From Kiritimatiellia bacterium (lineage in GTDB: Bacteria; Verrucomicrobiota; Kiritimatiellia; RFP12; UBA1067), in contig JBMNFY010000002.1 of assembly GCA_050949565.1 (NCBI GenBank), positions 1 through 64,000 on the forward strand: a stretch of DNA of 64,000 bases. Direction: 5' to 3'. The position numbers and the translations under genes are program-made. Positions 49,336 to 54,582 of the stretch are shown piece by piece. The notes below the pieces were generated by a model that was not told the DNA's origin, made no database searches, and saw only the letters and a program-made list of their open reading frames with translations. Position 1 is the first letter of the stretch. Each line of letters opens with the position of its first letter.

Positions 49336-49479
49336 ATGAAAGGTTTTGCCACATTCCGATGCGCCGCCGTTTTTCTGGCGGCCGCCGCTGCCGCCCTCCT
49401 GGTGTCCGGCGCGGACATCGTCAGCACGGCGGTCCCGCCGCCCGTCTCCGCCGACACCGAGAGATGCGTCCACAGATAG
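49336..49479 (+). CDS. Small exported peptide (47 aa)
   Basis: GGAGG RBS; MKGFATFRCAAVFLAAAAAALLVSGA signal-like; stop lies 9 nt before the next gene. Confidence 0.45.
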   Translation: MKGFATFRCAAVFLAAAAAALLVSGADIVSTAVPPPVSADTERCVHR

Positions 49480-49488
49480 GGGGATGCC

Positions 49489-52400
49489 GTGGACGCCATC
49501 AATTTTCTCTCTCTCCTGAACGAAGAGGCGCTGCTCCGCGCGCGGCATCTCCTCGTCTGCGCGTGCTGCCTGTTCCTGGCCGCGGCCGCGCTCCTGCCCG
49601 CCGCGTGCGGCGCGCTCCGGTATCTCCTCGCGGAGGCCCGGCGCTTCCGCGACTGGGTCAGGCGCACCCCCCTGCTCGTCGTCCTGGCCGTGCTCCTTGC
49701 GTTCGCGGAGGCTGTCCGCTACGGAGGCTCGAAGGCCGAGCCGCCTTCGCCGCCCGCCCAGGGCCAGTCGTCCTCGTCATCCACGCAAGGCCAGCCGCCC
49801 GCGTCATCCGCCCAGGGCCAAGCGTCCGCGCCGTCCGCCCGGGGCCAGTTGCCCCCGTCGGCCACCCAGGGCGTGCCGCCCGCCTGCCTCATGCCGCCCC
49901 CGGCGGACGGCTTCATCCCGCCGCCGCGCTACACGAACCGCCTGACGCAGGCGCAGTACGACGCGTGCTTCGCGCTCACGCACGCCGCGACCAACGCCGC
50001 CCACGACTTCGCGCCGCCCGCCGGCGCGGCCGTCACCGATTACGTCTCGGGGCACGGCGTCCACGACGACGCCTGGTGGGTGCCCCTGCCGTCCGGCTTC
50101 AACGCGGGCGGCCTCGAGGATTACTCCCGCTTCGTCACCGCCGTGTGCGCCGCGCCGTCGGGCATGCTCCTGCTGGACGGCCTGCCCGACCGGCTCGCGC
50201 CCGCCGCGCCCGCCTTCCCCGATCCCGCCTCCAACCGCGTCCTCTCGGTGCTGCAGACCCCCTCGGGCCTCCTGCCGCCGGAGGGGCGGCTCTGGTCCGC
50301 GGCCGGGACCGGCGGCCTTCACACCGTCACCTGGAACAGCCTGATGCTCGGGCGGCGCGAGGAGGCCAGGGCCGACCTCCAGTGCCGCCTCCACCCGGAC
50401 GGCGATTTCGAATACTTCATCCGCCCCCGGCCCGGCGCGGACCTCTCCGCCGTCACCAACTGGCTCATCGGCGCGGCGGACGCGGGCGGCGGCGAGGCCT
50501 TCGCCTTCGCGGACGGTGCGCCGCTCTCCGCCGCCCTCCCGCCCGGCGGCGCGGCGCTCGCCCTGCGCTGGACCGCCTTCGGACGCCTCGACCCCGCCGC
50601 CCCCGACACCGACGGCGACGGCCTCACCGACTGGGAGGAGCTGATGGTATACCGCACCGACCCGCGCCAGCGGGACACGGACCGCGACGGCCTCAGCGAC
50701 GGCGACGAGGTCCTCAAATACGGCACCGATCCCCTCACCCCCGACAGCCTGGGGGACGGCACCAACGACTTCTGGCGGGTCGTCGGCGCGGTCCAGCTCG
50801 CCTCCGCGCCGCCCCCGTGGATGGAGGGCGGCGCGGGGCTGGCCCTGCTGACGCTGGAGACCCGGCTGGAGGCCTCCGCGGGCGTGGCGGCGCTGCGCAT
50901 CGGCGAGGTCATCGTGCCCGTCGCGCCGGGCACGGCGCAGCTTTCGCGCGTCGCCATCCCCCGGGGCGTGGACGTCCCGTTCGCGCTGGTCCCCGGCCCC
51001 GGGACCTCCGCCGCCGACGCCGCGGTCACGGTGGCCGCGGCCTCCTCCCTCACCGTCGCCGAAGACGCGGACAACGTCTTCCGGGTACCCGCCCCGGCGG
51101 GCGCCCCCGCGCCCGCGGCCGCGCCCCCGGCGCCCGCGCCCGCCTCCCCCCCGCCGGGCAACGCCAAGCACGGCACCATGCACAACTTCAATTACGCGTT
51201 CTCTCCCGTGCCGCTCTGCCCGCACACCGGGCGGGACACGGTGAACGTGGGGATCGTCGGCGCCCGGCCGAAGAGCGTCGCGGCCTTCGGCTTCGGCACC
51301 GCCCCCGACCTCTCCCCGGCGTTCAGCGTGAGCGAGACGTACCTCAGGGGCAAGTTCCCCCATCTGGCGGAGACGCCCGGCATGCACACGGTGCAGGTCC
51401 CCGTCAAGCTGGGGGTCGTCCTGACAAACAACACCGCGAAAGCGTTCGGCGGGAACACCGACACGGTGCCCGCCCACCTCTGCGTGTTCGCGGGCGGGGA
51501 AGAAGGCGATCCCTTCAACGATCCCCCTCCCGGCAAGTGCCCGTGCTGCCCGGAGCCGAACAACTGCCTGTGCCGCTGCGCATCGCCGGGCGTCTGCGCG
51601 TGCCCGACGTGCCTCGACCCCTACCACACGGGCACCCCGACCAACAGCGCGGGACAGGCCGCCGGCACGGTCGACCGCCCCCGCCGGCTCCTGCTGGCGG
51701 GCGGCGCGCCCGACACGGTCACGGCCGCGCCCGCGCCGGGGGCGGGCCTCTCGCCGCTGGACGGCGCCTGCATGCTCTGCGGCTGCACGCAGACCGTCGC
51801 CGGCGGCAGCTCCCCCGTGCCCGCCGTGATCTTCCGCTGCACCCCGAGCCTCTCCGCCGCGCCGCTCGAAGGCTTCGCCGCGACCTCGGGCGTCTTCACC
51901 GTGGCCGGCGCGGCCCCGAGCGCCTCGGCCGGGGCGGACGTCTTCACCTGGCAGGCGGGGCGCTTCTTCAGCCGCGGCCGCTACACGGTCGCCGGGCTGG
52001 GCGTGTGCCTCTCCAACGCCCCGGCGGACGCCCCGCCCCGCGTGCAGGCCGGCCACACCAACATCCTGTCCGTCACGACCCGCGTCCCCGCCGACGGCGG
52101 CGGCACGCTCACGTTCAGCGGGCACACGGAGGCCGCCTCGGCCAGAGTCAAAAACCGCCAGACCGGGCAGTACGAGCCGCTGCAGGACTCCTACGCGGCG
52201 TCCGAGTGGCTGGCCAAATACACCGCCGGGACCAACCGCACCGCCGAGGTGCGCTACGCCGCCGCCCTGACGGGGCAGCGCCTCTTCACGGTCGCCTACG
52301 GACTGCCCGGCGCCCTCCCCGGCAGCGTCTCGACCAACCTCGCGTTCGAGGCGGTCGGCACCCGCGCCGAAACGGTCAACGCCGCGACCGACGCCGACGG

Positions 52401-53370
52401 GCACGTGTACAACACCAGCGGCATGCCGCTGGGCGGCACCGCCCGCTTCAAGGTCGAGGTGGCCGGCGGCACCGTGCCCGACGCCGACATCACCTGGACG
52501 ATCAAGGAGGGCGCGGGGCGCGTCGCCTTCGCCGGCGGCAGCACCGGCCCCGAGGTCGCCGTGACCGCGACATCAACCGGTGCCTTCCGGCTGGAGGTGG
52601 ACATCAAGGGCCTCGTCATCACGCCGCCCCACGTCCGGCCCTACTTCACCGGCACCGTCCTTCCCGCCGTCAACGTGCCCGTCACCGTCTGGATCGTGAG
52701 AGGATCAACGGGAGCCAACCCTGCCCGCGACGCCGACGAGATACCCGGTCTTCTGGCGGACGCCAACAAGATCCTGTGGCAGAACGGGCTGACGCTGGTC
52801 CAGAGCGGGGCAGTGCATTACGCCGACAATACCGCATGGTTGAACCCGAGCAACACCACGCCGGCGGCCGTTTATGAATTCGACGCGCTCATGGATAGCT
52901 CGTCGGGCACCGGCGGCGTGGAACTGTATTTCGTACAGACGATCACGGGGGGAAACAGGAATCTTAATGGCATCAAACGAGACAAGGGCATTGCCATAGC
53001 CGCGATCGGCGATGCGAGCACGATCGCGCACGAGGTGTTGCACGCCTGCGGCCTCGTCGACATCTATCCCCAGATAACGGTTCTTCCGCAGGAGGATAAG
53101 GTCTCCATCCCGGACGTGTGCGCGCCGGAGATGCTGCCGTCCGACTGGTGCGGCGGTTATTACGAGCCGGGGCTGATGCAGAAGTTCGTGGTCGCCCGCC
53201 TGATCATGAGTCCGACGGGTTATGGGAACGTGCCGCTGCCCCGGGCCGATATCCCGTCAGGGAGTGTGTGGGGATATCGCAATTTCAGTACGACGGGCGA
53301 TCCGGCCGATGAGTTGGAGTTGAGGAACGTCGGCCTGTCCGGCTGTCATCAGAATCCGGTCAGCGAATGA
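49489..53370 (+). CDS. Large exported protein with DxDGDG Ca-binding repeats, Cys-rich region and C-terminal metzincin (HExxHxxGxxD) domain
   Basis: Two hydrophobic segments then YGGSK; 9-aa QGQ repeats; [46 protein letters not shown] at 53029-53061 and RLIMS Met-turn candidate. Confidence 0.8.
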
Positions 53371-53380
53371 GGAGGAGAAC

Positions 53381-54453
53381 ATGAGAAAGGTACTGTTGTT
53401 TTATGTCGTGACCATCGCGTTGATGTCTGCGGCCCAAAATCCGGGCGCAAGACCCTTCGACGACGAGGCCATACGCGACATGCTTGAAGGTTTCGCGATC
53501 ATGGAGGCGGACAATGAGGGCGATCCCCACCAGCAGAATCTGCCGACCGTGGCGGACTGCTATCGGATGATGGAGAAGCGGTGCGAGGAAGCAGGCGTTG
53601 ACAAGCGGCGTATCCTCGACGTAGCCAAGGAGGAGATCGACAGGTGTGCCGCCTACGTGAAAAGCACCGGGCGGACGTCCATTGCCATCAATGCGGTGAG
53701 GTTGCTGGACCTCGTGGCGCATTCTGGTGACCGTTCGCTCCTGCCCTATCTGGAGGAAAAGAGCCTTGATCCTGAAACCCTCAAGTTCATCCGTTCTGCC
53801 GCTGCGGAGGTCTATGTCAATATCGCGGATGTGGAGGAGAGCGTGAATCTATTGCGAAAGCTGTATGATGACCGTTCTTTCCGGGAGTCGCGATACTACT
53901 ACGTGAGCGGCCTTTTTCTGCAAAAGGTGAAGTCGGAGGAGAAATCTTTGACAGACGAGGTGAAAAGAGACATCTGCACTCATTTGCTTGCGATTGTTCA
54001 GAGTGCGGATAGTCCGGGGGATGCGCTTGACGCTGAGTTCTTTTTGCGCGACTTTCTCCCGGGATACACCAACAGCAAGCAACGGGCAACGCTGGTCCGG
54101 TACGCCAACATCCGGGGGATGCGCTTGACGCTGAGTTCTTTTTGCGCGACTTTCTCCCGGGATACACCAACAGCAAGCAACGGGCAACGCTGGTCCGGTA
54201 CGCCAACACCGGTAATGAATACATGACAAACAACTTCAACCCCATCAAAGCGCACTTCGATGCAATCCCCCAAAAACAGCGCATCGATCTGCGCAAGCGT
54301 TTTCCCGACCTGCCGCCATTGCCGGATGACGCGCCCGCTAGAAGCCCCGTGAAGGTCGCGTTAGCCATCATCGCGGGGGGTGTCGCGCTCGCGGTGTGCG
54401 CCGTGGCGGCGTGGCTCGCCGTTCGGCGGAGAAGGGTGCGTGAAACGACATGA
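53381..54453 (+). CDS. Signal-peptide, C-terminally membrane-anchored helical protein (candidate immunity/partner), frameshifted by a 98-bp duplication
   Basis: GAGGAGG RBS; removing one duplicate copy gives a 324-aa ORF ending in a TM helix plus RRRR. Confidence 0.72.
54013..54208. repeat. Perfect 98-bp tandem duplication
   Basis: 54013-54110 is identical to 54111-54208. Confidence 0.97.
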
Positions 54454-54582
54454 CAGCATGGATAACGCAAAGCCACGAGGGGTTTGCACGGAGCAAGGGC
54501 GGCGACATCTCGGCCAAGAACAGCCAGATGCCCTGCATCACCCACAACCGGGCTAAAGGGAATCGATAGTATCAGGATGTCG

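Follow-up and report, generated by a model that had tools for sequence, protein, structure and literature searches.

An exchangeable metzincin tip and a mosaic downstream partner at a Kiritimatiellia locus: a possible polymorphic protease-inhibitor pair

Why does one large bacterial gene lose its extreme GC content exactly where its C-terminal domain begins, and do that gene and the small gene directly behind it represent a polymorphic toxin and its immunity protein? These questions are raised by a locus in a 64,000-nucleotide (nt) stretch of contig JBMNFY010000002.1 (assembly GCA_050949565.1, Kiritimatiellia bacterium), hereafter the window, in which a protein of 1293 amino acid (aa) residues is encoded on the forward strand. 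An initial annotation, made from the letters of the DNA alone, had proposed an undescribed polymorphic toxin-immunity system with a swapped protease tip. The current study confirms the observation behind that proposal and partly supports its toxin-immunity interpretation. The reading that we favour, tentatively and at somewhat less than an even chance, is that of a polymorphic protease encoded together with its cognate inhibitor in the envelope, the pair probably serving in conflict among strains. Throughout, the conserved N-terminal part of the 1293-aa protein is termed the trunk and its C-terminal metzincin domain the tip, while GC3 denotes the GC content of third codon positions, E the expectation value and ORF an open reading frame. 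The features from which the argument starts are the following:

49489..53370, forward strand: gene for the 1293-aa protein, with a GTG start (ORF list)
49350..52698, forward strand: GC-rich tract, GC 0.69-0.82 and GC3 0.95 (windowed GC, GC3 change point)
52669..53367, forward strand: predicted metzincin catalytic domain (tip), residues 1061-1293 (profile search, AlphaFold2, Foldseek, PDB profile)
53029..53067, forward strand: zinc site H1181-E-x-x-H1185-x-x-G-x-x-D1191-I-Y1193 (38-sequence alignment)
53206..53208, forward strand: Met-turn methionine M1240, in RLIMS (invariant column M201 of the tip alignment)

The start codon of the 1293-aa gene falls at the same place in its relatives, as judged from the family alignment. 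In 300-nt scanning windows the GC content is 0.69-0.82 over positions 49350-52650 and then falls to 0.63 and 0.59. The 21 scanning windows within the trunk have a mean GC of 0.751, as against 0.600 (standard deviation 0.049) for the 395 outside the gene, just one of which reaches 0.70 or more. GC3 is 0.953 through codon 1070 (nt 52698) and 0.771 beyond it, to be compared with 0.68-0.81 in ten other genes of the window and 0.68 in the downstream partner gene; the change point has a support interval of nt 52563-52701, and none of 1000 codon shuffles equalled the observed step. The excess GC of the trunk sits in third codon positions, and the step coincides with the start of the metzincin tip. 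The initial annotation had described a GC content that stays high to about 52670 and drops abruptly at the protease domain; that position is right, since the change-point interval includes it, and the claim about base composition is correct, far beyond chance.

What lies beyond the step is, we conclude from sequence and structure prediction, a divergent adamalysin/pappalysin-like metzincin with a snapalysin-type zinc site, an assignment made because the zinc motif, the Met-turn, the structural model, the Foldseek matches and the PDB profile agree. The protein carries the motifs [19 protein letters not shown] and LIMS, and its zinc motif reads H1181-E-V-L-H1185-A-C-G-L-V-D1191, in keeping with the metzincin definition HExxHxxG/NxxH/D (PMC12237041; this and all further articles are cited for the accessible parts of their text). 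In the alignment of 38 tip-family sequences H1181, E1182, H1185, D1191 and M1240 are invariant and Y1193 is at least 90% conserved; the glycine of the motif is replaced by isoleucine in three trunk relatives. Aspartate as the third zinc ligand is described for snapalysins and thuringilysins, and tyrosine at the corresponding position for snapalysins among other metzincins (PMC12237041). The AlphaFold2 model of the tip has a predicted local distance difference test score (pLDDT) of 90.5 and a predicted template modelling score of 0.88. Foldseek gave 19 matches at E <= 1e-3, with TM-scores (query) of 0.35-0.46; at the top of the list stand PAPP-A, ulilysin, ADAM-8 and snake-venom metalloproteinases, every one a metzincin. 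The tip-family profile matched adamalysins in the PDB at E 0.002-0.035. The metzincin tip of the initial annotation is thereby borne out, the domain having the zinc motif, the conserved methionine (by its sequence column) and the predicted fold.

Two narrower assignments were rejected. Against the snapalysin family M7 the tip profile gave E 0.99 (1c7k) and 1.0 (4hx3), over about 20 residues around the motif only, and the tip spans about 230 residues as against about 130 in snapalysins. Membership of Pfam M12B/Reprolysin_3 was likewise set aside for the window's tip, which matched no Pfam peptidase model at E <= 0.1, the Tox-MPTase models included; the gathering cut-off of Reprolysin_3 (22.4 bits) is passed by six of 63 relatives (P0056, P0121, P0128, P0131, P0161 and P0175). 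In a HMMER search of 1.84 billion representative sequences, 353 clusters matched residues 1040-1293 at E <= 1e-3, and 150 of them reached E <= 1e-10. According to the table of these 150 listed representatives, the domain is C-terminal in 149 (the exception being P0163), whatever the N-terminus, and is preceded by more than 300 residues in 48. In most of the 38 tip-family proteins a conserved V-G...R-x-P-x-H tail closes the sequence, a few residues short of the stop codon.

Comparison with relatives reveals that the tip is exchanged among near-identical trunks, always for a domain of the same fold. A search with residues 1-1050, covering relatives of 711-2263 aa among the best 8000 candidates, gave 42 matches, of which 16 (P0001-P0016, E <= 1.4e-133) extend beyond the repeats of bacterial thrombospondin type 3 (TSP3) in the trunk; close relatives carry the source labels Kiritimatiellia or Kiritimatiellae. 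Three of the 16 stop before the tip and may be fragments, one being labelled partial by its source. When the trunk (residues 400-1040) and the tip (1085-1293) are compared separately, the window's protein, P0001, P0002 and P0003 are 95-98% identical in their trunks and 37-48% in their tips, which fall into three types, with the exception that the tips of the window and P0001 are 92% identical. The corresponding values for trunk and tip are 97% and 32% for P0009 and P0010 and 99% and 69% for P0004 and P0005, while P0044 represents the reverse case, its trunk being 48% and its tip 72% identical to the window's. The tip of P0002 is closest to that of P0006 (64%), the trunks of that pair being 58% identical. 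In a sliding comparison of the window's protein with P0002, an identity of 92-100% falls to 21-64% from residue 1041 (21-44% past 1081), and identity to P0003 falls near residue 1121. Approximately unbiased (AU) tests, performed on quick trees with groups named from the other partition after the identity matrix was known, rejected for the tip data the clades of the trunk (p 5e-6 and 7e-40) and for the trunk data a group defined by the tips (p 4e-63). Variation within the tip clusters in the loops 1120-1139, 1200-1219 and 1240-1280, while the strands, the catalytic helix and DWxGGYY are conserved.

The gene directly downstream, termed the partner, is variable in a manner of its own. Its features, and three relatives whose segments disagree in their similarity to it, are given below:

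53381..54453, forward strand: frameshifted partner gene, with predicted signal peptide, HEAT-like solenoid, juxtamembrane motif, C-terminal helix and RRRR tail (ORFs, intact relatives, AlphaFold2)
54013..54208, forward strand: exact 98-nt tandem duplication (54013-54110 and 54111-54208) breaking the partner frame (tandem-repeat and repeat searches)
P0203, partner relative: N segment 42% and mid segment 100% identical
P0206, partner relative: N segment 99% and mid segment 29% identical
P0217, partner relative: N segment 23% and mid segment 87% identical

The partner starts 10 nt past the stop codon of the 1293-aa gene. Its reading frame is broken because 98 is not a multiple of 3, intact relatives carrying a single copy, and the duplication splits it into ORFs 53381-54226 and 54142-54453. 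Intact relatives of 324 aa, P0194 among them, are 100% identical over the shared part. In the AlphaFold2 model (pLDDT 81) a signal-like helix at the N-terminus is predicted to precede an all-alpha solenoid, and a C-terminal helix at residues 290-321 has RRRR behind it. The spacing, the GC3 of 0.68, the helices and the RRRR tail thus agree with the tightly linked downstream gene of lower GC, with signal peptide and transmembrane anchor, that had initially been described. Foldseek returned generic HEAT, TOG, ARM and alpha-Rep repeats (best E 0.054), and atlas feature scores of 0.81-0.83 serve as leads only. Pfam gave no family for the window's 281-aa and 103-aa partner pieces, bar a weak MHYT match (E 0.015); NCBIfam gave none above cut-off for P0194, and the partner profile found nothing in the PDB below E 0.23. 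In an alignment of 24 of the 45 matches, near-duplicates and fragments being excluded, a short core is conserved, as are the juxtamembrane motif towards the C-terminus and the anchor that goes with it. As aligned, the partner family is a mosaic of independently assorting segments, which implies that the partner recombines too and supports a conflict-type locus.

Is the step in composition a peculiarity of this one genome? Scanning of genome contigs retrieved 77 loci, mostly through their TSP3 repeats (one of them, L047, matched residues 161-490 only and is without the tip), and the partner profile matched none of the 77. A true relative is present in one, L001, from a contig titled as a Kiritimatiellae metagenome-assembled genome, at 29% identity; it is also the only locus found by the tip profile. 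L001 repeats the architecture of hairpin, TSP3 repeats, Cys-rich part and metzincin tip, and 11 nt past its stop codon lies the gene of a signal-peptide protein that is cut by the contig end. Its trunk has a GC of 0.72-0.76 and a GC3 of 0.90-0.98, its flanks a GC of 0.45-0.49 and a GC3 of 0.45-0.66, and its tip a GC3 of 0.25-0.63, in a host of about 0.47 GC. Since L001 displays the same fall from trunk to tip, the GC step is a trait of the family and not specific to the window. A single recent high-GC donor was rejected as its cause, the same step being present in a 29%-identical protein of a lower-GC host. Our preferred guess for the high GC3 is GC-biased gene conversion in the recombining trunk (compare PMC4450053). 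Rhs elements are described as having a GC-rich core and an AT-rich extension (PMC7259588).

The trunk itself comprises the following parts:

49489..49731, forward strand: residues 1-81, two hydrophobic helices with an Arg-rich loop between them, then A-E-A / VRYGGSK (sequence)
49732..49883, forward strand: QGQ / Ser-Pro-Ala linker with 27-nt and 54-nt tandem repeats (Tandem Repeats Finder; repeat search, family D2)
50581..50769, forward strand: TSP3 repeats with calcium-binding DxDGDG, residues 365-427 (Pfam TSP3_bac, E 5e-9)
51217..51786, forward strand: Cys/His-rich block, residues 577-766 (invariant columns of the family alignment)
52420..52653, forward strand: putative immunoglobulin (Ig)-like domain, residues 978-1037, and conserved junction, residues 1041-1055, before the tip (weak PKD match, E 0.035)

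The N-terminus consists of a short acidic tail, a hydrophobic helix, a loop with six arginines, a second helix ending in A-E-A, and VRYGGSK. Residues 1-81 could be a hairpin in the membrane or else an extended leader that signal peptidase may cut: the positive-inside rule would place the Arg-rich loop in the cytoplasm and most of the protein outside it, and the small-x-small motif behind helix 2 could be a candidate for cleavage. The same hairpin layout, followed by G-G/T-S/K-K-P, recurs in L001 and in the distant tip-family proteins P0116, P0139, P0110 and P0146, and is therefore a conserved module, though of no described type. The array of 27-nt repeats encoding QGQ occupies 49757-49883. The TSP3 region holds most of the invariant columns of the family alignment, and in the Cys/His-rich block C577-P-H579-T-G and H663-x-C665 are invariant in 17 relatives, alongside a CPCCP..CxCRC cluster, a pattern suggestive of a metal site or of a disulfide knot. 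The junction [15 protein letters not shown] (1041-1055) is conserved in trunk relatives and in otherwise unrelated tip-family proteins. All the N-terminal features of the initial annotation (two helices, YGGSK, QGQ, DxDGDG and Cys-rich block) were thus recovered through the ORF translation, repeat searches and Pfam, the double helix gaining further weight from its recurrence in distant relatives. Pfam at E <= 0.1 found nothing in the 1293-aa protein beyond TSP3_bac and the weak PKD match, agreeing with the stated lack of RHS, PAAR, VgrG, LXG and haemagglutinin domains. Matches of the trunk profile in the PDB are confined to TSP3 and EF-hand-like repeats; PADLOC matched neither the 1293-aa protein nor the partner (P0194) nor a 1238-aa neighbour, Rfam had no match within 48000-55500, and tblastn gave a single TSP3-only match in plasmids and none in phages. 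A 47-codon ORF with a signal-peptide-like start (49337-49479, forward strand) ends 10 nt before the GTG of the 1293-aa gene; it is not counted in the module because no counterpart exists upstream of the gene in L001.

Behind the partner, the window contains a short repeat remnant:

54472..54488, reverse strand: 17-nt identity to the end of a repeat of about 100 nt (blastn-short, E 5e-4 to 2e-3)

The initial annotation had taken this for the end of a miniature inverted-repeat transposable element marking the right edge of the locus; the exact 17-nt match is real, while neither the transposable nature nor the role as an edge was borne out. Full copies of the repeat, with internal hairpins, lie inverted and 1.46 kb apart at 16049-16146 and 17605-17703, where they flank a ParA/MinD-type Fe-S ATPase gene, and a further 26-nt piece is found at 15446-15471. 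Divergent from the 1293-aa gene is a PAS histidine kinase (46614-48958, reverse strand) that is split over the overlapping ORFs 47606-48958 and 46614-47657. One of these matches positions 3-48 of the PAS_3 profile and the other positions 45-89, which indicates a frameshift near 47.63 kb and makes the kinase the second damaged gene near the broken partner. Convergent with the partner, 130 nt past it, is the 1238-aa ORF (54583-58299, reverse strand), with a signal-peptide-like start and no match in Pfam, NCBIfam or PADLOC. Some 4 kb from the locus, Eco57I / Type IIG-like methylase-restriction genes and a T5orf172-ResIII helicase (58592-63414, forward strand; GC 0.49-0.57) suggest a defence or variable region close by. 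Elsewhere in the window, an 1148-aa ORF without Pfam match (29253-32699, reverse strand) contains direct repeats at 30030-31344 (families D1, D4 and D5; spacing 750-771 nt, 74-81% identical), by their sequence an internally duplicated domain, and short GC-rich palindromic repeats common to three intergenic sites (1332-1408, 13270-13302 and 20099-20150; pairs I2 and I4) look like repetitive extragenic palindromic elements.

How might such a pair work? In the working that we propose, the two genes would form a module specific to Kiritimatiellia and relatives. The first would encode a giant extracytoplasmic protein, the N-terminal hairpin of which may insert in, or lead through, the cytoplasmic membrane; a stalk of QGQ linker, calcium-binding TSP3 repeats, Cys/His-rich block and Ig-like domain would present at its C-terminal end a metzincin zinc endopeptidase, predicted to be active, with Asp as third ligand and Tyr two residues later. 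The product of the second gene would be a HEAT-like solenoid in the same compartment, held at the membrane by its C-terminal helix. Homologous recombination at the conserved junction would swap the tip for diverged alleles of the same fold and would also shuffle segments of the partner, the trunk keeping its very high GC3 possibly through GC-biased gene conversion. The partner would bind and block its cognate tip in the envelope of the producer, and the diversity of both would reflect a protease-inhibitor arms race among related strains, the pair acting as a polymorphic effector with its immunity protein. We infer the topology, the binding, the inhibition, any damage done to other cells and the way in which the protein is released, as well as the action in the periplasm and the export signal of its own that the initial annotation had proposed; the fold, the catalytic motif, the exchange of tips, the partner mosaicism, the linkage and the composition step come from the analyses above.

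An antagonistic role of the protease-partner pair is plausible. The favoured reading is given the weight it has because of the exchange of tips, the mosaicism of the partner, the linkage in two distant loci, the Rhs-like composition, the envelope-facing partner and published precedents: polymorphic toxin systems include metallopeptidase tips as well as immunity proteins of the Imm-HEAT kind (PMC3482391), and the periplasm is where the metallopeptidase of VgrG2b acts, the gene of its envelope immunity protein lying downstream (PMC6899460). A fuller version we consider unlikely, namely that the locus represents a new polymorphic effector class in the Kiritimatiellia lineage. In such a class, metzincin alleles of one fold would be swapped at the junction, each matched by a mosaic, membrane-anchored HEAT-like immunity protein; the hairpin with G-G/T-S/K-K-P would be an undescribed export or presentation module; and the recombining trunk would be driven to about 95% GC3 by local GC-biased gene conversion, paralleling the Rhs core, in hosts of different base composition.

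A number of observations weigh against a conflict pair. All 13 of the 16 trunk relatives in which the C-terminus is reached bear the same metzincin family (HExxHxC...D), and none of these 13 carries an unrelated toxin domain. Toxin-delivery domains (RHS, PAAR, VgrG, LXG, haemagglutinin, Tox-/Ntox-) are absent from all 63 tip-family proteins scanned, which instead have as companions TSP3 (17 of 63), dockerin, LamG/Ig, F5/8 type C and Peptidase_C11, such domains being typical of extracellular degradative or adhesive proteins. The tip and partner profiles find one copy each in the 64-kb window, that is, no orphan cassettes, and none of its 26 scanned ORFs is a secretion-system gene; an uncleaved hairpin would moreover retain the protease in the envelope of its producer. 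The partner is frameshifted while the protease gene is intact; an immunity gene that the cell cannot do without would not be expected to be broken in this way, unless its 243 native residues still function or the duplication is a variant of the assembly or within the population. Between the downstream protein of L001 and the partner family hhalign detects no homology (probability 1.1%). Finally, P0001 (with its tip 92% identical to the window's) and P0206 (with its 29% mid segment) come from records that give the same length, 276,730 nt, for their longest contig, the only pair so linked between the trunk and partner matches; if the two adjoin, as is possible, near-identical tips would stand beside different partner mid segments. 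Of what defines polymorphic toxins, then, replacement of the C-terminus by recombination was found, while diversity of unrelated toxins, a trafficking or pre-toxin domain and orphan cassettes were not. The constant N-terminus and variable C-terminal enzyme proposed initially hold in so far as tips are exchanged (identity matrix, AU tests), the enzyme keeping one fold in 13 of 13. The initial annotation had also named, as evidence that would count against it, homologues with one C-terminal domain and no variable downstream gene; the domain is indeed of one family in these 13, the downstream gene, however, is polymorphic.

The company kept by the wider tip family is what would be expected of a secreted or surface protease with a degradative or adhesive task (breakdown of proteins or glycoproteins, remodelling of a matrix), the partner being a folding helper, an anchor, a regulator or an inhibitor for self-protection such as other secreted bacterial proteases have, and the diversity arising from substrate range or from the pressure that phages or predators put on an exposed protein, and not because strains antagonise one another. 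We hold this account to be doubtful, if a serious competitor. To the companion domains named above, with fn3 besides, and the absence of delivery domains may be added the C-terminal position of the tip behind any N-terminus, the invariance of the catalytic residues and, among the neighbours in the window, a GH106 rhamnosidase and CotH- and LTD-type exported proteins; KLIKK peptidases and potempins are a case of protease-inhibitor gene pairs without interbacterial killing (PMC9890683), and a broken partner would be easier to tolerate. The exchange of whole tips on trunks that are 95-98% identical, together with assorting partner segments, is nevertheless the signature of a conflict locus, and the concentration of tip variation in loops around a conserved core and the Rhs-like composition pattern also speak for conflict and not for degradation.

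A polymorphic head on a conserved stalk would equally suit a surface protein for recognition or cohesion, in which the TSP3 stalk presents a head that decides adhesion or kin and the partner serves as membrane co-receptor. The TSP3 region (residues 365-427) does match locally the NCBIfam models CglD, a gliding adhesin (E 1.5e-9), and MtsD, of cohesion (E 0.01), both far below the family cut-offs, and its repeats match a biofilm-associated surface protein in the PDB profile search (E 3e-7). These matches cover the TSP3 repeats only, however, no adhesin domain was found in the trunk by Pfam or by the trunk profile against the PDB, and the invariant zinc site and Met-turn in 38 diverse sequences point to selection for catalysis, so that we regard this explanation as improbable. 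That the GC step and the tip swap are an artefact, either of a chimeric metagenome assembly or of a meaningless recent insertion of foreign high-GC DNA, is suggested by the strongly deviating composition of the region, by the two damaged genes nearby (the partner with its 98-nt duplication and the split histidine kinase) and by the origin of many relatives from short contigs. Yet P0001, a separate record, is 96% identical over residues 1-1050 and 91% in the tip; the same architecture and step recur in L001, which was assembled independently and whose host differs in GC; and the reading frame runs unbroken across the junction, itself a conserved motif. An artefact is thus most improbable, and the conflict pair remains the reading that we favour.

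Each part of this system, be it the metzincin, the TSP3 repeats or the helical-repeat partner, belongs to a known kind. The combination of these parts appears undescribed, joining a hairpin leader, a trunk with a GC3 of 0.90-0.98, the swapping of tips of one fold and a mosaic, anchored partner; a narrow literature search, with subscription journals outside its coverage, found no description of this protein family. If the pair does consist of a protease effector and its cognate inhibitor, polymorphic conflict systems would be extended to a little-studied phylum without cultured models for them, specificity would be seen to evolve within one enzyme fold and not by the swapping of unrelated toxins, and a natural series of matched metzincin and inhibitor variants would be at hand. 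With a trunk GC3 of 0.90-0.98 that falls at the junction in both hosts, one of about 0.60 GC and the other of about 0.47, the family offers a clean test case for what keeps the cores of Rhs-like elements rich in GC.

Among enzymes, the tip resembles the M12B adamalysins/reprolysins and M43 pappalysins in its predicted fold and in the order of its secondary-structure elements, and the snapalysins in its HExxHxxGxxD, its Met-turn and the Tyr two residues after the Asp (PMC12237041); it differs from M12B and M43 in that its TM-scores are 0.35-0.46, no cysteine-switch prodomain was identified, and it has an R-x-P-x-H tail of its own. The pairing of genes is like that of the KLIKK peptidases and potempins of Tannerella forsythia, where a secreted peptidase gene adjoins the gene of a membrane-anchored specific inhibitor (PMC9890683). 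Potempins, in contrast, are outer-membrane lipoproteins of 98-132 residues encoded upstream, the peptidases belong to several catalytic classes, and the accessible part of that article mentions neither tip swapping nor a composition step. VgrG2b and PA0261 of Pseudomonas aeruginosa offer a likeness to an effector: a large carrier ends in a zinc metallopeptidase, which is neutralised through binding by an envelope-targeted protein encoded directly downstream (PMC6899460). The window's partner is likened to the latter by its position and envelope anchor, and relatives of the VgrG2b immunity protein are described as having varied envelope anchors (PMC6899460). VgrG2b, however, is carried by a type VI secretion system (T6SS) spike, while the 26 ORFs scanned in the window include no T6SS gene or VgrG; VgrG2b is absent from the 50 Foldseek matches listed for the tip, and a 324-aa solenoid with a C-terminal anchor is unlike the small periplasmic PA0261. 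From Rhs and other polymorphic toxins the locus differs in that its large protein is without YD/RHS, PAAR, VgrG, LXG, filamentous haemagglutinin and pre-toxin domains (Pfam, E <= 0.1), in that its tips are all of one fold (13 of 13) with no Tox-MPTase match, and in that no orphan cassettes lie in the window. It is like them in its large conserved N-terminal part and recombined C-terminal tip (PMC3482391, PMC7259588), in a GC-rich core that gives way to a tip of lower GC, and in the small gene directly downstream, and polymorphic toxin systems too know both metallopeptidase tips and HEAT-repeat immunity proteins.

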